A stretch of DNA of 63,310 nucleotides, filler included, from Porpidia crustulata (Eukaryota): the NCBI GenBank assembly GCA_964255105.1. It is 12 parts of 12 records of this genome, joined end to end, with 100 filler letters (N's around TTAATTAATTAA, not from the genome) between each part and the next. Parts side by side here need not be neighbours in the genome. Positions count along the whole stretch, not along the records: positions 58,143 to 63,310 come from CAXUWE010001893.1; 11 more parts are not named here. One strand, written 5' to 3'. Positions 1,103 through 63,310 of this stretch are shown in pieces (positions within the stretch are counted from its first letter, which is position 1; every line of letters starts with the position of its first letter). The translations under genes were made by a program, and so were the position numbers. A model generated the notes under the pieces. It was given only the letters and a program-made list of their open reading frames with translations. It searched no databases and had not been told where the DNA came from.

Positions 1103-4100
1103 ATGGAATCGATTGCGGCTTTTGGTCTTGCCGCGGCGATATTGCAAGTCGTCGATTTCAGCTTCAAGGCACTTTCAAAGTGCCGAGAGCTGTATAAAGA
1201 CGGCTCCCTAGCTGAGCATGCGAGTACAAGGGCAGTAACGACAGATCTGGGTACGCATTTCGAAATCCAAGCTTGTAGACTCGTCTAGGTAGCCCGCTTA
1301 TACAATCTGTAATCGATACAACTGACCGACTCAGATTATCGGCGAGCCAAATTCCCGCACCGCTCCCGCCCGAATATCAAGATATAGTGGACGTATCGGG
1401 CCAATGCTCGAAAACGGCTGCGGAGCTTCTGGTAGAGCTTAGAAAGCTGCAGCTCGACTCAACCGGAAGTCTACGTCAGGCCATCAGCAAAAGTATCCGA
1501 GCTATGAGGAGAAAGACTTTCGTCAAGGAAATGCAGGACAAGCTCAATAAGTATCAGGGAATTCTTGATACGCGTATTTTGGTTCGCCTCCACGCGGGCT
1601 CAATTCAGCACACGAAAGAGTTTCAAAGCCTTGATCAAAATGTGCAAGCTCTCATTGTTGCCGTGGGCCAGGGTCAAAATGCAGTAGCAGCCCTGCTTGC
1701 CGATCATAGTCATAGTTTGCGTAGTCACATTGATCGTCGATTCGATGATCACGCGCAGCGAGATCTTGATCGCAGATCTCAGCAGCAGTTTAAAGACAGT
1801 CTATTCTTCCCGGGAATATTTTCTCGACAGGAGCAAATCCGTGAAGCACATTTGGAAACATGTTGCTGGATATTTTGTCCCCCCCGCAGCGAACAGCTGA
1901 ACAAGAGCAAAATACGCGCTTCGGAGGGGCATAATGACAGGAACAGAGAAGATAATGATAGACATCCAAGCGTGCCAGCAAATGACCAATCGCAATCCCA
2001 TCGCCAGGCTGGTGAAAGTAACAGTGACTTTGAAAGAAGAAGTGACATCGATTTCGATGCCGCGATTAGTGATGAGTCTAATCCTGATTATAGCGATGAG
2101 CATGGAGAAAGTCTACCGTGGTCAAACTTTATCGAATGGCTTGAGCATGGCCAAGGCGCTTATTGGTTAAAAGGCAAACCTGGATCGGGAAAGTCAACAC
2201 TTACGAAGTACCTCGTTAGCGAAGTTGAGACGAATGCATGAGCAAGAACGGCCATTAATAATTGGGCCAATGGTTCCATGCCTTTAATAGTATCCTTCTT
2301 CTGGAATCCAGGTGGAACTTTGCAAAAGAGCATCCAAGGTTTGCTACGGTCGTTACTATTTCAAATCCTCGATCAACAACCGGAAACTATCTCCATTATG
2401 ATGAGCCGAAAATTAAACTCAGAAGAAACCCGTTCTGATTCCTTCAGTTCTATGCAGATACACGTATGGACGGAAGAGCGACTTCTTTCCGTCCTAAAGC
2501 ACTTTCTCAACCACAAGCCATCATCTATCAGTATTCTCTTCTTCATCGACGGACTCGATGAGTATGTTGGTGATGAAGACAATCTCATCGAAACCCTCCG
2601 TCTGCTGATCAGCACGCCGCACGTTAAAGTCTGTGTGTCCAGTCGTCCGGAGCAAATCTTTCGTCGAGAGTTCTCGATGTCGTCTCAATTGAGGCTACAA
2701 GACCTTAATCGTAAAGATATCGAGAGGACGGTGAAAGAAAAATTGCTTCCAGTCTTGGAGCAATGTTTTCCCCAAGAAAAGTTTAAAATTGATAGAATGA
2801 TGGAAGTCGTGATCTCAAAAGCTCAGGGTATTTTTCTGTGGCTTGAGCTTTCCATCAAAGATCTCAGGAAAGGAGTATACAATGCTGATACCATGAGTGA
2901 GCTTTATGCTAGACTACAGTCGATACCTGACCCGATTGAGGGCCTGTATGAGAACATGCTTAGTCACACAGATAAGCAGTATATGCAAGAGGCTATTGAG
3001 TACTTTCAACGATTGATGTTAGATTCACATCGGCCTATAAGCTTGTTGGAATTCGCATGCGCGGAAGATGTGAGTTGGGCGCACGTTGCGAAGAATGATG
3101 GTGAATACCTAAGATCCTCGGAATTCTACGACACATGCCAAAACTATGAGACCCGAATCGTCACGCGCTGCGCTGGTTTAATTGAGATCGAAGAGCATAC
3201 ATCCCTTGCATTTCATGACTTTCTTTGCCAATATGGATTTATCGTGAATAAGTCCCGGCGCATCGTGGACATAAATCACGAAAATCAAAGCTCGTTCCGT
3301 CATTATCGCAAAGTGAGATTTATACATCGAACTGCTGTGGATTTCCTGGAAATTCATCGCCAAGAATTCTTTCAGCAGCCGAACTGGCGAGCACGTGCCA
3401 TTCTTTCACTTGCACGCGGTAATCTTGGGCTTATGAGCATGTTGCCATTTGCCAAGGCTGAAGGTCTTTTTGGTGACTGTTTAGTACGTAATAATGAACC
3501 GTTTAGAGTATCTATGGGATTTTTTATCGAAGACTTCATGGACGAACTTCATCAGCTAGACGAGATTATTTCTACCGAAGGTGTTGATGATTCTTTGACG
3601 AGTTCTCTTATCGAGATGGGTGGACCATACATATCGGATCATCGGACATGTCGATACGAGTTTTAACGGTATCGATCATCCTTGGCCTGCACGCTATACT
3701 CTGTCTGACTTGGTTGCTGAACATAACTGTTTTGTTCCGTTCCGTGATTCTTATGGCTTTGCCGCTTTCTTTTCATGTCGTAGCTACATCTCGCGACATT
3801 TGTCCATACATAAATGCACCAGTCAGGAGTTAGATTATTTACTAAAGTGCACTCTGATGAGACTAGGACGCCCACATAAGACGTCTCTACCAGCGCTATT
3901 CATGAGAAATCTCACGATCACTCAAGAATTGCTGCGTCAAGGCGCAGATCCAAATGTTTCTCTACGCTTAGGTGCTGGCTTGTCCAATTTCATGTATGAC
4001 AACTCGGCATGGGGCTGTTTCTTTCAATATGCGACATCGCATGTGCTTACAAGTCTGTGTGAAGCTTCCATTAAGCTGCAATCAATCTTCCTACTCTGGG

Positions 4101-4664
4101 AAGAATTGATAGAAAGGTTCTTGTCGGATGGTGCAGAAACTCATATAAGTATCTTTATTAGTTTGCGGAGTAGGAGATTATCAAATTTCTTTAAACATAG
4201 ACAAGTCTGTCTCGTACTCGAAGAATCACCTTTATCGTACATCCAGAGAAGGATTACTTGTCAAGTTGAATTTCTGGATGAGGCAGAAAAGGATCTCACA
4301 AGATCAGTTGACGTTATCAAAGACTTTGCTACGATCGCGTGGTGTTCCTCAGCGAAGACGTTTCCGTCTTATCGAACCCCCGTCGCAGAGAAAAGACTCG
4401 AGTAAGCAAGCATGGTATACACTGTCAGAAACTCAGTTAAATCGTTTGTGCGAGACTATATTATCGGATTCTCTTGACCCTTATTCTATCCGACACTATG
4501 AATTCTTTAAAGGTACGAATGCTTGGAGCAACGTCTTCGAAGAAATTCGCGCCAGTCTCACCGAAGCCGACGTGATCGACACTTCAAACTTCGTACTCAG
4601 AAGCTCCTTTGATCCGCCCAACGACCAAGACATCGTCGAAGAAACAAATCGCCCACAGATCTAA
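1103..4664 (+). pseudogene. Fungal NLR-like gene (SesA/HeLo-like N-terminus + NACHT NTPase), disrupted
   Basis: N-terminus MESIAAFGLAAAILQVVDFS; Walker A GKPGSGKST; FFWNPG; Walker B FFIDGLDE; CVSSRP; AQGIFLW. In-frame TGA at 2239-2241 (ORFs 1387 and 2278 share a frame); frame switches near 3617 and near 4300. Confidence 0.8.
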
Positions 4665-5201
4665 ACTCCGCTTCGCTCCCAGTATCTCTGCATACTGTCT
4701 ATCAGCTTCTCGATAAGTTTCACGAACCTGATCTGATCGACTAAGATGCGGAAGTGACGGAGCATTTGAATACACCTAAAGGTAGTTGGGGCATGATTGG
4801 CTGGATTAATGTTCGGAGGTCGTACTTGGATATTACGAGGCTATGGATATGATCAGATCCTTCAGGTTGAAGGGACCGAATCTCTTAGAATATATTCAGC
4901 TTACTACACATACGATAAACTCGATGGTTGTTCGCTTGTTTACGGTTTTGAACAACATCAAGACGACTATCCAAACCCCCGAAAAACCCCCTCCTCCCAA
5001 TCGACTTCCCAAAAGCCCGAACTCACCCTCCCCATCTCTCCAACCTACCACCCGCATCCCCCGCGAAAACCGCCAGCAGACCCTTAAATATCCCTCCATC
5101 AGAGTCCCTAGCCAAAACCCCCCGTCGGGCTCGCTTATATCCGTGAATTAGCAATAAAAGAAGATTTACTGTAATTGCTGCAGCTGGGGCAGGCATGAAC
5201 G

Positions 5202-5301
5202 NNNNNNNNNNNNNNNNNNNNNNNNNNNNNNNNNNNNNNNNNNNNTTAATTAATTAANNNNNNNNNNNNNNNNNNNNNNNNNNNNNNNNNNNNNNNNNNN
5301 N
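5202..5301. other. Artificial contig-joining spacer
   Basis: N44-TTAATTAATTAA-N44; the core has stops in all six frames. Confidence 0.98.
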
Positions 5302-6110
5302 AGATGGACTACGATGGGGGAGGTTGGTGTACACAGTCAAATTTACGGCATCTACCATATGGTGGAGAACAGGCCTTGGATAATATTCTTGGACGGCTGC
5401 TAATGCGGCTAGTGCTCGAAACAGGACTTGCACAAAGTTGGAACAGGATGGGCTGCGAATTTGGTTCGGGTTCACATGTCAGCATCCGACTCCATGGAAA
5501 GGCGACGTCATCGCGTGGTCCCAAGACTTCGAACGTTCTGACACCTAGATGTTGGATCCAATCCATGTACCTGAGATTCTTTTTGATGTCTAGCTAACAT
5601 ACAGTCTTCAAACCCTCAACCATTCTGGTACTATTCGAAAAATGTCCAGTATTGAAGCGTATTATTCTGTACTGATGATAATTCTACAAGTACGACTAGA
5701 TGACTCCATAAGGGCTCGGCAGACTTGATCCGAAAGCGCAATCTCCTCATCGGGCAATCGTCCTTCCTAAGTTACTCAATTTATCCCAAGCGCAAAACCT
5801 GGCAGATCCCCTGCCGCCGTCAGCCACCCCGCCACCATCCCCATGCAAGCCGACGCTCTAGAGGGAACTATTCGCGGGGCTGCCACACGATACGTCCAGC
5901 ATGGAAACTCCGTCATTGCGTAATTTGAAGTTCCAAGTCTCACGCCCAGCCCATTTTGCCATTTCCATGTTTCGCTTTATTGCTTCTCATCTCATTGTGT
6001 AAGCCGTCCCAGTAGTGATCTCTAACATTTGTTTGCCATTCCTGCCTTTACTCCCACGTAATTGCATCTCTTACGCTGTCTCTCGAGTCTAAACTCCACA
6101 TCGCAAGACC

Positions 6111-7030
6111 ATGTCTGAAGAACAATCCAAAGTCGATGAAAGTCAGGCTTCGGCTGGTGCCAATGCGTCGGGGTCTGCAGCTGCTTCTGGTTCAGGAGGA
6201 ATTGGCGGGCAAGCGTCTCAGAAATCCGAGCAGAAAACCAAGCGCACTCCTCCGAAGCTGAACAAAAAACAGCAGCAGCAGAAGCAAGACGCAGAAGCCA
6301 AAGGCAATGAGGGCGGGGAGGAAAAGGATGAACCCAAAGGCGACGCCAATGGAAAAGCTGGTGGCGAGGCGAAAGAAGAAGAACAAGCCCCGGCCGGCGC
6401 AGAAACAAATGGAGAAGCAAAGGGAAGATCCAATGGCGACGTCCAGCAAAAGCAGCCTCAATCACGCAATCAGTCCAAGCGCCGCCAAAGTCGTGGCCGA
6501 GGACGTAGCAAAGTACCCGATAGCGACACCGAGTCCATCGCGCGCTCAGACGTAAGCTCCACGCCGGCAGGGGGCCGGAGGAACCGTAATCGAAAGCGAG
6601 GCGGGCCAAAAACAAAGGAGGCTAATGGTGGTGGCGGCGGACGAGGTGGACCACTGGACTCGCTTGATGAAGTTGGAGAAACGGTCGATGGTGCCGGGCA
6701 AATGGTGCAGCAAACGGCGGGCGAAGCTACCAACAAGGCGGGTGAAGCTGTCAACGGCGCGACTGATCAGGTTGGGAAGACGGTCGGGGGTCTGACCGGT
6801 GGTGGTGGTAAGGAAGAAGAAGATGGGGGCAAAGGAGAGCAGCTGAGATTGAGATTGGAGATTAATCTTGATGTGGAGATTCAATTGAAAGCAAAGATAC
6901 ATGGGGATTTGACGATTGGACTATTGTATGTGCTATTATTTGAAACTCATCTTCCTCCCCGTGACTTTCTAATATCCCTGGATGAGTTCCAAGTTTCGCG
7001 TTTGGCTAACACTACCTCAATAGGAACTGA
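6111..7030 (+). CDS. Hydrophilic (LEA-like) protein with conserved C-terminal LRLRLEINLDVEIQLKAKIHGDLTIGLL motif
   Basis: ORF from ATG 6111; intron 6926-7023 (GTATGT..GCTAAC..TAG) gives the ending ..IGLLN* with TGA at 7028-7030. Confidence 0.75.
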
Positions 7031-7651
7031 AGAAATTGAACGACCAACTCTTATATATCATCAACGAGCGTGGAGGACTTGGATCGTATTTCGTATTTTG
7101 GATCGTGCGACAACGACGGAGCGGGATTTTGTGGAATTGGGTAGATCACAATGAGAGAAGATGGATCATCTCGTTGATCGACCCCGGCGGATTATCGGCT
7201 GTTTTTCCTGGTTGTGGTTTCAAGCATCTGCTACTTAGCGAATAAGCATGAATCTAATGGGATCATTGTTAGTTGAATAAATGTGAATCAGTGAAGTGCC
7301 ATGGCCGAATCGGACAGGTCTGGATAGCATTGATACCCATCCATTCTACTAAATCTATTCAAGGGATTCCCGTGTAGACAGATCATGGTATTCCCTCAAT
7401 CCCTTTGCTGCCCTGCGTTCTTGGCGATATCGTACCCAATCGCCGAGTTGTCGGGACAGGGACCCACGAACCTTTTAGCGATACCTCGCTAGAACATCAA
7501 CCCTGCAGCAGATCTCGAATGATCCCGCCAGTTAACTCCCGCCTATGACGCACGCCCCGAACGAGACCGTTAGCACTTCCTTTAGTGCACCTGATGGACT
7601 CACCTGAATCTTTTCGGTACAGCTTCATATCGCGGGGTCGCCTCCGAGTGT

Positions 7652-10501
7652 ATGATAGAACTCCAGGATCTTGCCGGAAAACCACAAAAACCAGGTGGCC
7701 TTTTGCAGGACGACCGCCAGTATAGGAGACACCAGAAAAGGGAGCGTAAGCTCCAGCGAATTCTCGCAGACGAAGCGATGAAGTTCTCGCACAGTATACA
7801 GTTTAACGCTGTGCCGGATTGGAGCAGCCATTACATATCATATAGTAACCTCAAGAAGCTGTAAGTCTGATCGGAAATCTAATTGAGCGCGGAGGTTTAT
7901 AAGGGAATGATGCGCTTGGTAAACGCCCCAATCATATCAAGTAAAGGCTGACTGTCCTTGTCCTTCCCATAGTATATACGTCCTCGAGAAATCTATCAAT
8001 CAGGCATCTGCCGGCCCACATGATGCTGAAGGGTCTCCACTACTCAGCGGGAATGACGATCCTGACACCGTCTTCCGGAACGCTCTTGACTCCGAGCTGG
8101 AGAAAATATCATCATTCTACCAAGTGAAAGAGCTTGAAATATATGGGGAAATAGATGCTGTTATAAGGGATGTACAGTCCTACGAGGCTGATACCGAAGG
8201 GCATGATGCCGAACCACATGAGCCACCCCCCGGAAGCCGCAAAGGAGTAAGAGGTCGTCAAGGCAGCATATTTAGAAATCTTGGGATTGGTAGACAAAGG
8301 CGTATCAGTAATGTTAGCGCGTCGATAAATGAGGTGGACGAAGATGCTTCTAGCGACGAAGATGCAGACGAGGTCTCTGCCTTGACCAATGGCAAGACTA
8401 AGGATAGAAATAAACCTTGGGACGGAGAACAGAGTATAGACGACCTTCGAAGCTCACGAGAGTTGCCAAAGCGAAGATTGAGCCAAGCGTATGATGACTA
8501 CAGTGATCACGCATTTTCCACCTTACTCGCTTCGGGTATGACACTGAAGAAGAGGATAATCAGTTTATATGTATCTTTGTGCGAATTAAAATCCTTCATC
8601 CAACTCAACAAAACAGGCTTTACCAAAGCTTTAAAGAAATACGACAAGACTAATAATCGGAATTTGAAGAGCCAGTACATTAAGAATCAGGTCAACAAAG
8701 CAGCCCCTTTTCAAGACTCAACGATGCAACGTCTGGATGAGAACATCGCGACTGCTGAGAAACTGTACGCTGATATTGGTACAAAAGGCGACATACAGAT
8801 GGCGAAGCGCGAATTGAGATTACATCTTCGGGAGCATGTTGTTTGGGAACGAAACACAGTCTGGCGAGAAATGATTGGCATTGAACGAAAAGCGCAGGCT
8901 GCAAATATGGGTGTCAGGCGGACCTTGCTCGGGGCAGACCACGATCCTTCAAAAGCACGGTTACAGGGAGATGAACCGGATGAAATGGGTACGAAAGAGC
9001 TAGTTACTCCGGTTGGCAGATTCACTTGCCCACGATGGCTGTTCAGCTCAACTTTCTTCACCTTGATAGCTATCATAGTTGTGTTCGTTGTATTGTTGGT
9101 AGCACCGATCATGGAGGAAAAGGCGCAGCAGAACTGCCTGGCAATGCTGGTGTTTGTGAGCTTGCTGTGGGCAACCGAAGTATGATCTTTCATCTCAAGT
9201 CGATTCACTTGCTAATTGCCTTGCAGGTAATACCACTTTTTGTCACCGCGCTTCTAGTACCATTCCTGGTGGTCGTTCTTGGAGTAATGCGGTCAGATCA
9301 GAAGCCACATCGTCGACTTGACGCCAAAGATGCTGCGGGTCATGTCTTTGCCGCCATGTGGACGCCAGTCATCGTGCTGCTCCTGGGAGGATTTACAATT
9401 GCGGCAGCATTATCGAAGTTTCACATTGCAAAGCTCATGGCTACCTTTGTCCTAAGTAAAGCCGGAACAAGACCAAGAACAGTTCTCGTGACAAACATGT
9501 TTGTCGCAATGGTCGCAAGCATGTGGATTAGTAACGTTGCAGCGCCAGTCCTATGTTTCTCCATCATCCAGGTATGACCTTGACTCCATCCAGGCCGTAC
9601 TCAATCTAATCGCCCAGCCCCTCCTTCGCAATCTGCCGTCCGACTCCTCCTTCTCCAAAGCCCTCATTCTCGGCATTGCCCTGGCCTCCAACATCGGCGG
9701 CGCCGCCTCTCCCATCGCCTCCCCCCAAAACATTATCGCCCTCCAAAACATGCGCCCACAACCAGGCTGGGGCACTTGGTTCTTCGTCGCCCTTCCGATC
9801 TGCATCATCTCCATCCTCCTGATCTGGATCTTGCTCCTGGTGACCTTCCGGCCCGGCCGAGGCACCACCATCGTGCCCATCCGTCCGATGAAGGACAAAT
9901 TCACCGGCGTCCAATGGTTCATCAGCAGCGTCACCGTGGTCACCATCATCCTCTGGTGCATCACCCACCAGCTCGAATCCGTCTTCGGCGACATGGGCGT
10001 CGTCGCCATCATCCCCATCGTCCTCTTCTTCGGCACCGGCATCCTCACCAAAGAAGACTTTAATAATTTCCTCTGGACCATCATCATCCTCGCCGCCGGC
10101 GGGTTGAGTCTCGGCAAAGCCGTCTCCAGCTCCGGGCTGCTGCACACCATCGCCGGCACCATCACCGCCAAGGTCGAGGGCATGAGTCTTTATGCCGTGC
10201 TCGTGGTGTTTTCGAGCTTGATCCTCGTGGTCGCGACCTTCATCAGCCATACCGTGGCCGCCTTGATCATCCTTCCGCTCGTGGCGCAAGTGGGCCAAGG
10301 CATGAGCGAGCCGCATCCGAACCTGCTCGTGTTCGGGGCCGCCATCATGTGCTCCGCCGGTAAGCCTCCTTCCTCACCAAACTATACCCACTTTGAAGCG
10401 CCAGCCATCTAATAACAACATCCAGGAATGGGCCTTCCCGTCTCCGGTTTCCCAAACATGAGTGCGTCCTTCCTTTCCCTTTCTTTTCCCCTCTTCCTTT
10501 C
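7652..10501 (+). CDS. PHO91: SPX-domain low-affinity phosphate transporter (Pho87/Pho90/Pho91 family), 3' truncated
   Basis: MKFSHSIQFNAVPDWSSHYISYSNLKKL SPX start at ATG 7778, with an in-frame upstream ATG at 7652; LNKTGFTKALKKYDK; EHVVWERNTVWREM; SLC13-type TM domain SMWISNVAAP, ASNIGG, SPQN, GLPVSGFPNM; several GT-AG introns. Confidence 0.92.
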
Positions 10502-10601
10502 NNNNNNNNNNNNNNNNNNNNNNNNNNNNNNNNNNNNNNNNNNNNTTAATTAATTAANNNNNNNNNNNNNNNNNNNNNNNNNNNNNNNNNNNNNNNNNNN
10601 N
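10502..10601. other. Artificial contig-joining spacer
   Basis: N44-TTAATTAATTAA-N44. Confidence 0.98.
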
Positions 10602-56998: not shown

Positions 56999-57523
56999 AT
57001 GCAGCTTCTGCCAGCTCACTTTACCCTCATCTCCTCGAGTCTCGTCATCCTGAATCTCTTTGCAGCTGCTTCTCCGCATAATCCGGTCTCTAAATCTCCC
57101 AGCGTTTCCACCGTCACCAAAACTGTCTATACCACTCTCACCTCGACCGCAATAAGCTATGTCATCGCCACAACTACCACGAAAACCTTTCACTCCATCT
57201 CAGCCTCCTCTATTCCAGCAAAGACAGTCTACGTCACTGATATCGACACAGCCATCAAGGAGGTAGCTGCTACCACGCAGACATTGTACACCGTTTCAGT
57301 CAGCCTAATTACCAAAACCTCCACTGTTATCATTAGCATTACGATTACGAAAGATATCGCCGCTACGACCGAGACCTTGGTGACTGTTGCAAGCTCCATC
57401 AGTCGCCCTCCAGCAACGACCGTCACGATTCGTATAACCACGACCACAACAGAGTATGTCGTTGCTACCACCACCACGGACACGATATCGCTGTTCACTG
57501 CTGCCGCTCCTACCAGCTCCTGA
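56999..57523 (+). CDS. Secreted Ser/Thr-rich (mucin-like) protein
   Basis: Hydrophobic signal-like N-terminus; Thr/Ser/Val-rich body with repeats KEVAATTQTLYTV and KDIAATTETLVTV. Confidence 0.6.
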   Translation: MQLLPAHFTLISSSLVILNLFAAASPHNPVSKSPSVSTVTKTVYTTLTSTAISYVIATTTTKTFHSISASSIPAKTVYVTDIDTAIKEVAATTQTLYTVSVSLITKTSTVIISITITKDIAATTETLVTVASSISRPPATTVTIRITTTTTEYVVATTTTDTISLFTAAAPTSS

Positions 57524-58042: not shown

Positions 58043-58142
58043 NNNNNNNNNNNNNNNNNNNNNNNNNNNNNNNNNNNNNNNNNNNNTTAATTAATTAANN
58101 NNNNNNNNNNNNNNNNNNNNNNNNNNNNNNNNNNNNNNNNNN
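58043..58142. other. Artificial contig-joining spacer
   Basis: N44-TTAATTAATTAA-N44. Confidence 0.98.
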
Positions 58143-58550
58143 TCAAGGCAAGATGAAAGAAGCCGAGGATATGTACCTGCGGGCATTGATAGGAAAGGAA
58201 AAAGCCTGGGGTCCTGAACACACATCGACGCTTGGTACGGTTAACAACCTAGGAAATCTGTACTCGAATCAAGGCAAGATGAAAGAAGCCGAGGATATGT
58301 ACCTGCGGGCATTGACGGGGTATGAAAAAGCCTGGGGTCCTGAGCACACATCGACGCTTGACACGGTTAACAATCTAGGAAGTCTGTACAAGAATCAAGG
58401 CAAGATGAAAGAAGCCGAGGATATGTACCTGCGGGCATTGATAGGAAAGGAAAAAGCCTGGGGTCCTGAGCACACATCGACGCTTAACACGGTTAACAAT
58501 CTAGGAAGTCTGTACAAGAATCTAGGCAAGATGGAAGAAGCCGAGGCCAT
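58143..58550 (+). repeat. Near-identical 126-bp tandem repeats (TPR units)
   Basis: TCAAGGCAAGATGAAAGAAGCCGAGG at 58143, 58269 and 58395, with a variant at 58521; period exactly 126. Confidence 0.95.
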
Positions 58551-61201
58551 GTATCGACGGGCGCTGGAAGGTAAAGAGAAGACGTGGGGGCTGGAGCATC
58601 CGGATACACTGATAATTATGCATAATCTAGCAGATGTGCTAGGGAATCAGGGCAAGTACAGAGAGGCCGAAGAAATGTTTTTAGGGACGGTAGAATTGAG
58701 TATAAAGGTCCTGGGCGATGGCCACCCATCCACCACAGTGATAATGGGCCATCGAGCCTCCCTGCTGGAGATTCAGGGGAAGCACACGGAAGCCGAGAAG
58801 ATGTATAAACAAACGGTAGAAAGCTTGAGGAGAAAGTTAGGGGGAGAGCATCCTCGTACTCTAACTAGTATGGCCAATTTGGCAGGAAATTATCAGAAGC
58901 AGGGACGCTGGGATGACGCGGAAGAGCTTCAGGTGCAAGTTTTAGAGATTAGTAAGAGGGTTTTTGGATCGGATCATCCTGTTGCAGTATCCAGGATCAA
59001 CGATCGAGCATTGAATCATGCGTGGACCTCAACAGCAAATGTAGTTAGTGCATGGAATGATGATGACGTACTATCACTTCCAAGCCTTACAGATGGTTCG
59101 ACACTGAAGTCCTCACAAGGTGATGATCGTGACGCCGCGGGGGAATTTGCCACATTGCTAATAAACGACGAGAGGCTCAAAGCATTATTTCAAGTGGCGC
59201 TTGAGAAAATTGGCACACAAAGATTTCGCAGAAATACAGTGAAATCCCTCAAAGATTTCGCCAGGAATCTTCGGCAAGAAGCAAATAGTGAACTACAACA
59301 AGCGTGTGTTGAGCTTGTGCGTTCGAGGGCGCAATATATTGTCAGCCGGATAAGCCAGAATCTTGATCCAAATCGAAATCAATCCACTGTGCACCGGGAG
59401 ATGGATGGCCTCTCGACTCAAACCCCTCAAAAGCAATTGCGAGTCGAAGATTTCATTTCGAAGCAGTCATTCATGGCGCAGGATTTTACAGTCGTAGAGG
59501 CCTCCTCGCAGCTCAGAGGCCAACTTGGCCCGACAAGAGAGAAGCTAGACAGTAATAATACAGACGGAGAGGAAAGTGACACGGACAATCAAGCGCTGCC
59601 ACGAATCGCTACTCTGGAACACCTGAAGGCTTTCATGGTCAATTCGAAAGCTTTCCTAAAGCTCAAAGACAACGTCCGGGAATTTGCATTTCCACATTCG
59701 CAAATGAATCTCGACCAGATTAAAGCTACGAGCCAATTGCCGGTCATCGCTTCAGATGCTTTGCAAGCGTTAACGACCTTGAAAAGCGTGCTGTTCATGC
59801 TTTATTCCTTATTCATAAATTCCGTACTCGCCGGTTCGTATGAGCATCCACTATGCATCGATTTCGACCGAGTACGATGGACATGCGTAAGCACTTTCCA
59901 TCCTACTACGTGTCAATAACCTGATCAAACCCAGACCTGTGGCCGAGGATTTTACCAAGACTTTGTTAATACATCTTCGGATGCACGAAGACTTTTTGGA
60001 TTACTCACTGCGTCAGGTTATCAGGCAAGCATAGTCAAACTACAAGCTCAAGATGACAACAGCATTCAATCCTCATCTGCCGCTCCGCCTGAAGATAGTG
60101 CGAGCAACAACCATGCTAGCTCCTCTCATCAGCGTTCATTAGCCTCTGCCATCCGACCGTCAGATCAGCCGCCCACTCAGGACACAGAAGAGGATGAGAC
60201 TAGAGTAACGCCGAATACTCCACGTGACGAATTCAAGCTTAGATGGCTGCTTCTTTGCTTCGATTTCTACAAGTACGCAGGAAAGACCATTCACGTGGAT
60301 GTACAAAAGCCCTGCGATGACGTTGAGATGTTTCATTTATTCCGGCAGGAATATCTCCGATCTCGAGGAATTCTAGGACGGCTATTTTCGTGGAAAAAGG
60401 TTAAGAAGATCTCGTTTGTGCAGGTACTCTTTCTTCATAATATTAAATCTGCCATAATATCAGAAGTATACTGACTTAATGCAGTTTCGACTAACGTTGG
60501 ATACCAGGACTAATGACAGCGTACCGCTGATTGCTGAGGAGTGGAAACCTCCACGTGAATGGGGACAATATCATCAATGGGATCCACGACCACCAGAAAT
60601 TTCACCAAATATAACGAGCGACTGGTTATTACATCACTGGGAACATCCTCATAATGCGCTAGCCTTTCGGCTTAATTGTAAAGCTAAGACTATATCTAGG
60701 CACATCTGTCGAAGCTCGCACCGCGCGATCAAAAGAGTGTTAAACGATGTTCGAGAAGCTGCAGCGAACGCTCTCGTAAGGTACAAAGCCTTTCGCGGGT
60801 CCGAATTAGATCAGCTGCCAACCAATAATACGAAATCTGAGACCCCCCCTATGAGCGAGATTACTACGGCTTCCTCCACTCCGATGAATGGCCACCTTCG
60901 AGAGAAACCAAACTTGATCTTCAAAGCTTGCCCGAAGAAAATTATCGAGCCACTATTAGCACATCCCAACAACCCACCATATGGATGGGGTCTGTATCTA
61001 AAGGAAGGCTTTGCAGTTCCCGATCCAATCAGAAATATCGCACTTTTCCTGGTGTTCGATCTTGTAGTCGGAGTTCTGGCTTACTGCATCAAACAGTTTG
61101 CTATCGCGAAATTTAGCGTTTTCGGCCTCTGGAGTGCCACACTTAGTCTCTGCTCTATAACCGCTATGTTCATATTCAAGTACGTGGAGGCGAAGAACTA
61201 A
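58143..61201 (+). CDS. NLR-type (kinesin-light-chain-like) TPR protein fused to an uncharacterised C-terminal module with 2 TM helices; 5' truncated
   Basis: 42-aa TPRs (GPEHTSTL.TVNNLG.LY..QG); introns 59887-59934 and 60424-60484 join the ORFs through RVRWTC/TCG, WLLLCFD, KKISFVQ/FRL, CPKK, GWGLYLKEG and two TMs. Confidence 0.82.
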
Positions 61202-61961
61202 CGATATTCTTTTCAATGTCGATGACATTGAGAAGTAAAGAGTTCAGGTCCTGTATTAGACGTAGTAGGTAGATATATTGGTGATGTACGTAGGCGCGTG
61301 GGCGAGACCTAAGCGGTATGTAAGCATGCTAGTCTATATACAGGAACCCTGCCCTCCTTAAACCTCTAGATTTAAGCTTCATATTGTTATAAAACAAGTG
61401 GGAGAGCCTAAAACAGGCTTAGACAAGAAGGCTATGGAAATCTATCAGTTGTAGTTTGCAATTTAAACAGACAATGATATAGCTAACACGCTCGTGAGCT
61501 CTTCCAAAGGGATCGCAATATAATCCCCCAAAGCCAATGTGGTTTATCTTGTCAAGGCAGGATAGGATCGGTAAGGCCGCTTGTAGTTGCTTGGTCACCG
61601 TCCATCCATCTGGCTGCTCAGGAGGGCATAATCAACGCTATTGTTTTCGCGTGATTTAACAGCGCGTAAATCAGCTAGACGCGCTGCATCTCTTGTAGGG
61701 ATATATTATTTCCTCTAGTAGACCTGTCGCGCCTGAGTCTGTGTTGTGCGCCGCCCCTTGCATTGGAACTAAAATCTTTCAAGGTTTCACTAAAACCATC
61801 CACTCATCGCTCATCGATTCTGTCCAGGATACGACCACCGTCGATACTGTTAAAATGAATACGGAAGTCCATACCCAGAAACTTCTCAACGATGCATAGT
61901 CTGTCTTTCATCTCGAATGTAATGGCTAGGTTCACCGTGGAGACTAACAGCGCATCGGATA

Positions 61962-62672
61962 CCATCTAATGAAGACGCATCCAATGATGACCTACTCCTC
62001 GACGATCCCACGGATCAGGAACTCATTCCACAATTTGTTTTTTAGGTACTCGCTGTCTTTTAGCCCAGGTAAACGGTCCCGAAGCTTTGGAGCAGCAAAC
62101 ATGTCTTAGCAAGCAATTGTACAAATCACGAAGAGTTGCCTCCTTCTACATGCTTGAAAAAAAGAATCTGGAGCGCCCTTAGCGACGAAGATGTTGTAGA
62201 GGTCTAACCTGTTCACACTCGTCCGATGTTTTCTAGATGCATTAGTGTCTTGGCTTCTAAGGCCTTGTTGAAATAGGTGTACTCTGTTGCAGACGTCCCA
62301 ATCTCTCCAAAGCTTAAAATCTCATCTAGGGAAATGTGAATGTATATTATAGGCTTGATACCCGTACGGGAGTTTTTCCCAGATGATTTAGGATCAGCTG
62401 CTCGGAAGACATGTTCAGATAGTGATCAACAGGAATGTGCTCGAGAGAGGTCTCTAATTAAGCCAGTATTAGATGTCTGCTGGAAATGGGAGTTGAGATT
62501 TATACAATCTTTGGGCCAGGTTTTTTTAGAGGAACCCAATCGAAATCTTTCTCCAAACAGATTGAGTTACTGTTCTGCTCCTTCGTCATCTCTCAGCAGC
62601 GTCAAAGCGGGGAGACGTGAGACATTGAACATAAGACCAGGGTATAGTTCACAGCAGTCAATATATCAGTAA
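61962..62672 (+). pseudogene. Possible C-to-T-decayed gene relic
   Basis: One frame reads protein-like for about 236 codons, interrupted by six stops (TAG/TAA/TGA), and continues into ORF 62340-62672. Confidence 0.35.
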
Positions 62673-62753
62673 TTGAGCCATCGCCACCTAGAAGATACAT
62701 GCAAAACCGGTGAGACTGGATAAAAAACAGACTATACGAAGAGCAAGTAGAGT

Positions 62754-63310
62754 CTAAGCACGCAACAATATCTTATGCACCTTCGCAGTATGATTCTTGA
62801 AAGTCGTGACATTTGACAAAACCAATTTGGCTGCCTCGCATCGCGGATGCGGACACGGGACCTGATCATCTGGTTCGAACTCCTTCAAGTGCTTCCCAAC
62901 CTCATCCATCATCTTGCTTGCTCGACAATATTCAAAAGTTCGTTCCTCGTAAGGCTTGCGTTCGTCGCCCAGGCAAAAGATGCATTGCTTCGGCTTGCAC
63001 TCCATGGGAAATTTATCCACGATGTCCTCTTTCAAATCATCTGAAGATAGTTCACTTTCTTCTTTTTCAACGCTCCATTTTGGCTGGCCGCGACGCTGGG
63101 TTTCCTGCCGAATACATAAGGCTGCCAGAGCTTCAATGCCCCTAATCCTTTGAGCAAATATTTCCTGATCTGTGAGGCCGGCTGCTGGGTGGCATATCCA
63201 TCGCACAACCCCGGATCGTTCAGGAATATTATATATACGACGCGCCGCAGATTCCTCACTCACTGTAAGTTTTTGACCCAAAGAGGCGGAGAACTGTGAG
63301 TCAAAGGCGA
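62754..63310 (-). CDS. C-terminus of a probable DUF3435 protein (Starship captain-like tyrosine recombinase), 5' truncated
   Basis: Frame open to the window end; R..IEALAALC..QE, QCIFCLGD......R.F, CPHPRC....L.....FKNH..KVH Zn-binding tail resembling DUF3435 proteins. Confidence 0.7.
   Translation of the reverse strand, partial: AFDSQFSASLGQKLTVSEESAARRIYNIPERSGVVRWICHPAAGLTDQEIFAQRIRGIEALAALCIRQETQRRGQPKWSVEKEESELSSDDLKEDIVDKFPMECKPKQCIFCLGDERKPYEERTFEYCRASKMMDEVGKHLKEFEPDDQVPCPHPRCEAAKLVLSNVTTFKNHTAKVHKILLRA

Follow-up and report, generated by a model that had tools for sequence, protein, structure and literature searches.

Does the contig that closes a 63,310-nt stretch of Porpidia crustulata DNA, on which the end of a putative recombinase gene faces a gene made of tetratricopeptide repeats (TPR), derive from a Starship element, and does the repeat gene belong to its cargo? 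The stretch as a whole, referred to here as the window, consists of 12 contigs of about 5.2 kb arranged in descending size with 11 identical linkers between them, and the contig under study (58143-63310, 5168 bp) is the last of the 12 and holds parts of only two genes. An earlier note on this DNA had read it as the possible front part of a Starship giant transposon, with a captain-like gene at one end and NOD-like receptor (NLR) cargo downstream of it. Our analysis suggests that the contig probably, though not securely, derives from the front of a Starship-type element, with the TPR gene most likely the element's own NLR-type gene.

The recombinase gene is represented on the contig by its 3′ end, at 62754-63310 on the minus strand, where it is truncated on its 5′ side by the contig end. 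As had been read from the sequence before, the frame is open to the end of the stretch (62754-63308, 184 codons, with the stop at 62754-62756) and contains the motifs QCIFCLG, CPHPRC, FKNH and VH. When this tail was searched for among longer proteins, 17 of 590 candidates matched at E ≤ 0.001 (E 2e-86 to 2e-45); it is 50-75% identical in amino acids to the C-termini of these proteins, and PF11917 (DUF3435) is present in every one of them. A Pfam rescan of relatives likewise found DUF3435 in 9 of 9. For example, in P0012, a relative of 789 residues, DUF3435 extends over residues 306-668 and takes up positions 50-417 of the 418-position model; the window tail lines up with the final 184 residues, an overlap that covers only about the last 60 positions of the model. 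Full-length relatives are about 790 aa long, with about 300 aa preceding DUF3435. The nearest copy, at the metagenome locus L001, is 95% identical to the window tail in amino acids and 94% in DNA, and the upstream exons of that copy match DUF3435 at model positions 97-210 and 234-417. The earlier label of captain-like gene is thus upheld by homology, which supports assigning 62754-63310 to the C-terminal 184 residues of a predicted DUF3435 tyrosine recombinase of about 790 aa, although the core of the window copy itself lies off the contig. Four of the 17 matched proteins carry source names (Xanthoria parietina, Variospora, Lasallia pustulata and Circinaria calcarea), all Lecanoromycetes by name, and with the fungal-type genes on the other contigs of the window they place the host in the Pezizomycotina.

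In the region upstream of that seen in the window the relatives share LRRG and FDH...YYLD motifs, which we take to include catalytic residues of a tyrosine recombinase. The tail itself contains a CxxC and a C-x4-C-x15-H-x4-H arrangement whose Cys/His columns are invariant or nearly so among 11 aligned sequences, and this Cys/His-rich tail resembles a zinc-binding DNA-recognition tail. It has no stop codon, and its ratio of nonsynonymous to synonymous substitution rates (Ka/Ks) is 0.20 against L001 and 0.44-0.71 against 14 other copies. A tblastn search of the stretch with three long relatives returned the tail and no other DUF3435 fragment.

What the contig cannot display at its end can be seen in the wider family of this recombinase. 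A scan of metagenome contigs gave 369 pattern stretches, 131 of which encode relatives of the recombinase tail, and 80 loci were kept and examined with flanks of 10 kb. When P0012 was mapped on these loci the gene measured about 2.6 kb, with short introns in most copies; if the window gene is like that of L001, its 5′ end is expected about 2.6 kb past 63310. An all-versus-all blastn comparison of the 80 loci revealed that, in nearly every pair from the main group, upstream homology breaks off at a single position, about 500-535 bp ahead of the gene. When 17 loci are aligned, this boundary is sharp to one base, with unalignable AT-rich DNA to its left and a common terminus with AGTATCTAC to its right. 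The 23-nt core of the terminus was found in 39 loci, about 500-525 bp upstream of the gene start and with nothing between, and the 200-bp flanks outside it fall into 27 groups by blastn (28 by ungapped clustering). In the clustering with 28 groups, the flank positions 5-8 nt ahead of the core hold T in 25 groups, A or T in 25, A in 28 and C in 27; these T[A/T]AC bases are followed by four less conserved bases before the core begins. That a single conserved 5′ terminus abuts T[A/T]AC in no fewer than 27 unrelated flanks is direct sequence evidence of repeated insertion.

Several copies of the family are not intact. Those at L008-L012 and L042 start 1.3 kb into the gene, that at L006 is interrupted by 3.6 kb (5623-9261) and that at L046 by about 8 kb (1740-9824). 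A second, distant DUF3435-like gene (25-39% to P0012) was also seen near the first at L008/L009 (5109-5924), L010 and L041 (13257-15057), and together with the interrupted captains this suggests nested or neighbouring elements. At L032, L036 and L048, the first ~60 nt of the 5′ terminus depart from the remaining copies chiefly through G-to-A and C-to-T changes; these changes, together with the stop-bearing tails of some copies described below, could reflect repeat-induced point mutation. Outside the 5′ boundary of L003 lies a Ty3-type retroelement. The 287 bp outside the boundary of L033/L035 (L033 7151-7440) are bordered by a 13-nt perfect inverted repeat, the right arm of which overlaps the first bases of the element.

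On the other side of the recombinase gene the homology between copies is tiered rather than fixed, with pairs of loci parting 35, 52, 94-97, 288-291, 380, 748, about 1033, 1443-1728, 2152 or more than 3900 bp past the stop. The L003 subfamily, whose members have differing 5′ flanks (L005, L015, L023, L024, L033/35 and L042), is collinear to the end of the 10-kb flank, so that the unit must exceed 13 kb. Starships measure tens of kb; on the contig itself, 4.6 kb downstream of the recombinase gene is in view. In L003 the next gene after the recombinase is convergent and encodes NB-ARC, DUF7779 and TPR_10/12, and an ankyrin open reading frame (ORF) follows it. In fact, convergent TPR DNA that is 78-93% identical to that of the window lies 0.5-2.1 kb past the recombinase stop in 25 of the 80 loci, and such a match is present in 22 of the 58 loci that have at least 2.5 kb downstream. 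In many copies the captain and a convergent NB-ARC/TPR gene form a travelling pair. Typical auxiliary genes of Starships are NLR, DUF3723, patatin-like and ferric reductase genes; of these, the last three domains did not appear among the ORFs scanned in the stretch, L001 and L003. A shorter variant of the L003 type (L018, L046, L047 and L060) is without about 5.6 kb (L003 12512-18139), that is, most of the NLR gene and what follows, and in it the TPR units are joined directly to the equivalent of L003 18139; it looks like an internal-deletion derivative. The breakpoint shared by L018 and L047 was considered as a 3′ end of the element and rejected: it is found at two independent loci only, with no matching repeat and no T[A/T]AC. 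Beyond it L018 runs on as the interior of another subfamily, and L046 and L060 repeat L047 at 100% identity.

The gene that faces the recombinase in the window has three exons on the plus strand. Exon 1 (58143..59886) is truncated on its 5′ side by the contig start and encodes near-identical 42-aa TPR units, three divergent units and the start of an unnamed module of about 700 aa; the reading frame is already open at the first codon past the linker, where the sequence lies within the array of near-identical 42-residue units. The ORF at 58153-59919 (+) matches TPR_10 (E 5e-69, six stretches) and TPR_12 (E 3e-59) over residues 1-280, and these families give the protein the superstructure-forming C-terminal repeats of NOD-like receptors. 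The earlier description of a TPR/NLR-type gene is therefore strongly borne out as to the repeats, and less so as to the receptor: no NB-ARC or NACHT domain lies within the contig, since its start at 58143 truncates the gene within the TPR array, and the word NLR presupposes a nucleotide-binding region off the contig. Intron 1 (59887..59934, 48 nt) and intron 2 (60424..60484, 61 nt), both read from the sequence, have GT..AG borders, and at the exon ends they bring together residues that are adjacent in P0041 (1349/1350 and 1511/1512, respectively). Exon 2 (59935..60423) supplies 163 codons of the module and is aligned, in the same order, in 8 of 44 homologues of exon 3; exon 3 (60485..61201, 238 codons and the stop) ends the module with a long hydrophobic C-terminal helix. 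Taken together, the three exons are collinear with a protein of 1573 aa and the splice points are matched exactly.

The earlier note had also placed a decayed relic between the two genes. If by this it meant the ORF at 60479-61201, the sequence argues otherwise. A HMMER search with exon 3 gave 44 homologues at E ≤ 0.001, 22 of them at 1e-10 and the best at 9e-88. Further evidence came from sequencing runs whose contigs or unitigs were compared with the stretch (X1, X2, X3 and X10; X1 contains 0.91 of the words of the stretch and may be its source). A contig of X2 runs over 59134-62095 at about 93% identity, and among the indels listed for X2 none lies before 61307, while the sole X10 insertion in the span, behind 60463, falls inside intron 2. 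Because splice points, homologues and exon order agree, and because the listed X2 indels start at 61307, the ORF is read as a working exon of the TPR gene (60485-61201), not a relic.

Residues 283-581 of exon 1 align to P0041, P0054, P0052 and P0022, and the module as a whole spans 58990-61201 (+), in exons 58990-59886, 59935-60423 and 60485-61201. In longer proteins the region of exon 3 lies C-terminal to Pkinase (P0041 and P0054), to DUF676 (P0022) and to NACHT with ankyrin repeats (P0049). Word-based searches among longer proteins scored none for exon 3 or for exon-1 residues 283-581; given the 44 HMMER homologues of exon 3, these blanks are sensitivity limits. The module has no Pfam family, and a search of the ESM Atlas with exons 2 and 3 gave no usable match. 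An AlphaFold2 model of exon 3 (27 sequences; mean predicted local distance difference test score, pLDDT, 72; predicted template modelling score, pTM, 0.44) consists mostly of long helices, including one at 180-237, and a Foldseek search of the PDB with this model returned 0 matches at E ≤ 10. The module, unnamed and about 700 aa long, thus stands behind TPR repeats here and also occurs in kinase-, DUF676- and NACHT-headed proteins, with no Pfam family or fold match, and we propose it as a candidate new domain family of fungal immune-type proteins.

Between the two genes, 61202-62753 contains short broken frames only, and a Pfam search with 11 short frames of 61419-62672 gave none at E ≤ 0.001. 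The part next to the recombinase (62006..62753), non-coding or decayed, is sequence common to related elements: by blastn past the recombinase stop, 22 loci match on to 62472 and 7 loci to 62006-62014, at 77-90%. The remainder (61202..62005) is a spacer unique to this arrangement, bridged by X1 record 3 and X2 record 12 and left by X10 record 9 at 61951. Family homology resumes in the TPR units at 58143-58680, at up to 93% DNA identity.

These observations can be joined in a single scheme. By analogy with Hephaestus (PMC10104507), the recombinase would excise and reinsert the whole unit at short T[A/T]AC-type sites, carrying the downstream genes with it. The 0.75 kb that follows the recombinase gene, to 62006, would be the captain-proximal sequence of the family, and the convergent three-exon TPR gene would occupy the slot in which 25 of the 80 relatives have a convergent TPR gene (NB-ARC/TPR in L003). 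It would then be the element's own NLR-type gene with its 3′ half replaced by the membrane-anchored 700-aa module. We regard it as most likely the element's own because it sits in the same slot and shows up to 93% DNA identity in the repeat units; orientation and rough distance are likewise those of the family NLR. Taken for itself, the claim that the TPR gene is cargo of the window element stands at roughly even odds on this evidence. A fuller version, in which a recently mobile, many-copy Starship family of lichen type has a core of captain and convergent NLR, and the NLR has here been rebuilt with the 700-aa module, is doubtful, and we put it forward tentatively. If true, a TPR array joined to a module that elsewhere stands behind kinase, DUF676 lipase-like and NACHT-ankyrin heads would be a new receptor architecture as Starship cargo, and for lichen fungi the family would supply the first evidence of Starship transposition drawn from multiple sites.

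A number of results weigh against the Starship reading and have to be set beside it. As the earlier note had foreseen, the window copy has its catalytic core, its 5′ terminus and any 3′ end beyond the contig, and the 184-residue tail alone matches no Pfam family at E ≤ 1. Some copies of the family are decayed, with one to three stops in 6 of 15 tails; the window copy looks constrained, some relatives decaying. A search for inverted copies of the 5′ terminus within 10 kb, at up to six mismatches, gave 0 in the 80 loci and 0 in the window; none of the family copies yielded an empty site, and no 3′ end could be defined for the family. A check for terminal repeats, which the earlier note had suggested, thus returned a sharp 5′ end with T[A/T]AC in 27 flank groups, but no terminal inverted repeat. 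The Starship nature of the family is nevertheless well supported, even without a 3′ end or an empty site, by the 5′ end and the common downstream genes. The cargo fares less well. In none of the 80 loci is there a DNA or protein match to the span 58680-62005, which contains the entire 700-aa module, apart from a 123-bp patch at 61840-61962 that is 78% like L015 and includes the point, about 61951, at which X10 departs. The TPR gene is present at 90-95% identity in X2, X3 and X10, and the 5.6-kb X10 contig (record 9), from another organism, is unlike the window for about 1.8 kb beyond 61951, so the TPR gene also exists without this neighbour. Moreover, TPR units can be homogenised between paralogues, which makes their likeness weak evidence of common origin. 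Of the earlier proposal of a Starship front with NLR cargo, therefore, the family hallmarks were recovered in relatives, but the cargo itself was not shown. The 30-nt loose end of X10 behind 61951 matches the 5′ flank of L033/L035, 287 bp before the terminus, at 20 of 20 bases, which is suggestive and too short to interpret; the zones without cover in X3 (beyond about 61430) and X10 (beyond 61951) were not used as evidence.

The most serious alternative, if on the whole improbable, accepts the captain-family gene as real and denies that the TPR gene is its cargo: an orphan or truncated recombinase copy with about 0.75 kb of its element would lie beside a resident host gene, or the contig would cross the edge of a rearrangement at about 61950-62006. 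Such a reading would account for why family homology from the recombinase side ends at 62006-62014, apart from the 78% patch to 61840, and why homology to the TPR-gene contigs of other organisms arrives from the opposite side, stopping in X10 at 61951; it also agrees with the occurrence of the module in 0 of 80 loci and with the frequency of truncated and interrupted copies in this family. Yet it would leave to coincidence that a chance host neighbour is a convergent TPR gene, with up to 93% repeat identity and at a similar distance to that in 25 loci. X2 has the junction of the window at about 93% identity, so the arrangement is no one-off, and the tiered downstream homology fits cargo turnover, not a fixed end. 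A different objection would place the whole family outside Starships, as a small Crypton-like tyrosine-recombinase transposon or a duplicated gene family with a conserved promoter. The missing 3′ end, empty site and terminal inverted repeat are in keeping with this, as is a minimal segment common to all copies that ends 35-97 bp past the stop. But a promoter would not give a 5′ boundary that is exact to the base across 27 unrelated flanks and abuts a conserved T[A/T]AC; copies with differing 5′ flanks have 2-10+ kb of downstream genes in common, unlike a Crypton, which carries the recombinase only; and the domain is DUF3435, used to define Starship captains in the accounts of PMC9156397 and PMC11162782. 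We hold this objection to be very unlikely. Finally, the contig could be an assembly chimera in which a TPR gene was fused to an unrelated multi-copy recombinase repeat. Repeated sequence occupies both contig ends, with near-identical TPR units on the 58143 side and the multi-copy recombinase gene on the 63310 side, which is why the assembly breaks at both; the summed contig depth of X1 is 86-95 at 58143-58488 and about 93 at 62468-62640, against about 10-11 between, and among the X1 records listed none covers the 184 bp at 62421-62604. Against this stand independent X1 unitigs over 58493-62420 and 62605-63285, with 0-1 differences and an even depth of 8-13. One of them (record 3) bridges 61863-62420 without differences, and the X2 contig (record 12), which spans 59134-62095, bridges 61951-62095 as well. 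Because of these exact X1 unitigs and the spanning X2 contig, the junction between the TPR gene and the recombinase side is real, and a chimera is the least probable of these explanations, to the point of being barely credible. The Starship-type fragment, with the TPR gene as its probable own NLR-type gene, is the reading that we favour.

The rest of the window has little bearing on this choice. Its 11 linkers (5202-5301, 10502-10601 and so on to 58043-58142) are artificial and carry no biology; the last, 58043..58142, consists of N44-TTAATTAATTAA-N44, separates unrelated contigs, and any feature that spans a linker is an artefact. The remaining contigs carry ordinary fungal genes (SPX, class I/II aminotransferase, TIMELESS, inositol polyphosphate kinase, Arb1, BRCT, ketopantoate hydroxymethyltransferase and GMA12/MNN10). 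The earlier note had remarked on the lack of a housekeeping gene on the last contig; on a contig of 5168 bp with parts of two genes this says little and carries no weight. One further contig of the stretch, the first, has a second NLR-type gene at 1279-3663 (+), encoding NPHP3_N (NACHT-type) and DUF7791; an intron or a frameshift at 2238/2242 divides this gene between two frames. Elsewhere, an ORF at 56999-57523 (+) encodes 174 aa among which Thr, Ser, Ile and Val are very abundant, and it shows loose repeats within and a hydrophobic N-terminal stretch; Pfam gave no match for it, and it looks like a secreted or cell-wall serine/threonine-rich protein.

Both genes of the contig can be set against systems already described. 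Fungal NOD-like receptors of the NB-ARC/NACHT-TPR type have near-identical TPR_10/TPR_12 units. The window gene resembles them in its similar 42-aa units, and the gene of its relatives has NB-ARC and DUF7779 upstream of the TPRs; it differs in that the window repeats are succeeded by the unnamed module of about 700 aa, whose last part is a hydrophobic helix. For the recombinase, the conserved C-terminal Cys/His tail recalls the captain of Enterprise, which, as given in PMC11162782, has an added zinc finger and chromo domain: in both there would be an extra putative DNA-binding zinc finger beyond DUF3435, whereas no chromo domain was seen here and the tail is without a Pfam match. The insertion sites of the family are comparable with those of Hephaestus (captain HhpA), which according to PMC10104507 inserts at TTAC(N7)A without target duplication, its repeat being element sequence that matches the target. 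Because Hephaestus inserts at such a site, the T[A/T]AC junction, which the family abuts in 25-28 of 28 flank groups, appears to be of the same kind. The flanks here are AT-rich, however, and the likeness concerns the TTAC core as read at 5′ junctions, not the A at +10.

Starships in lichen fungi are already known, and the window fragment adds one incomplete copy to them. Eight families of Starship recombinase were reported in Lecanoromycetes in 2024 (PMC11162782), and in 2026 a lichen Starship, Tangerine, was described from Xanthoria parietina along with 1,508 genes of captain type found in 554 lichen-associated genomes (PMC13486527), a catalogue that may already include the present family. 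As far as that account goes, Tangerine occupies a single locus and measures 85-102 kb, with its captain 1,390 bp from the end and its activity left open; the captain has 283 aa, and most captains of the Tangerine family are without a core-binding domain (PMC13486527). Set against this description, the family examined here is alike in its lichen-type hosts, in a DUF3435-type captain as the first gene near the 5′ end, in an NLR auxiliary gene and an ankyrin gene in the cargo, in what may be short ends of direct-repeat type, and in Ty3 retroelements around and inside the element. It differs in a terminus only about 0.5 kb from the gene, in at least 27 insertion contexts, and in full-length relatives of about 790 aa whose DUF3435 is preceded by about 300 aa, an arrangement that does not look like the loss of a core-binding domain.

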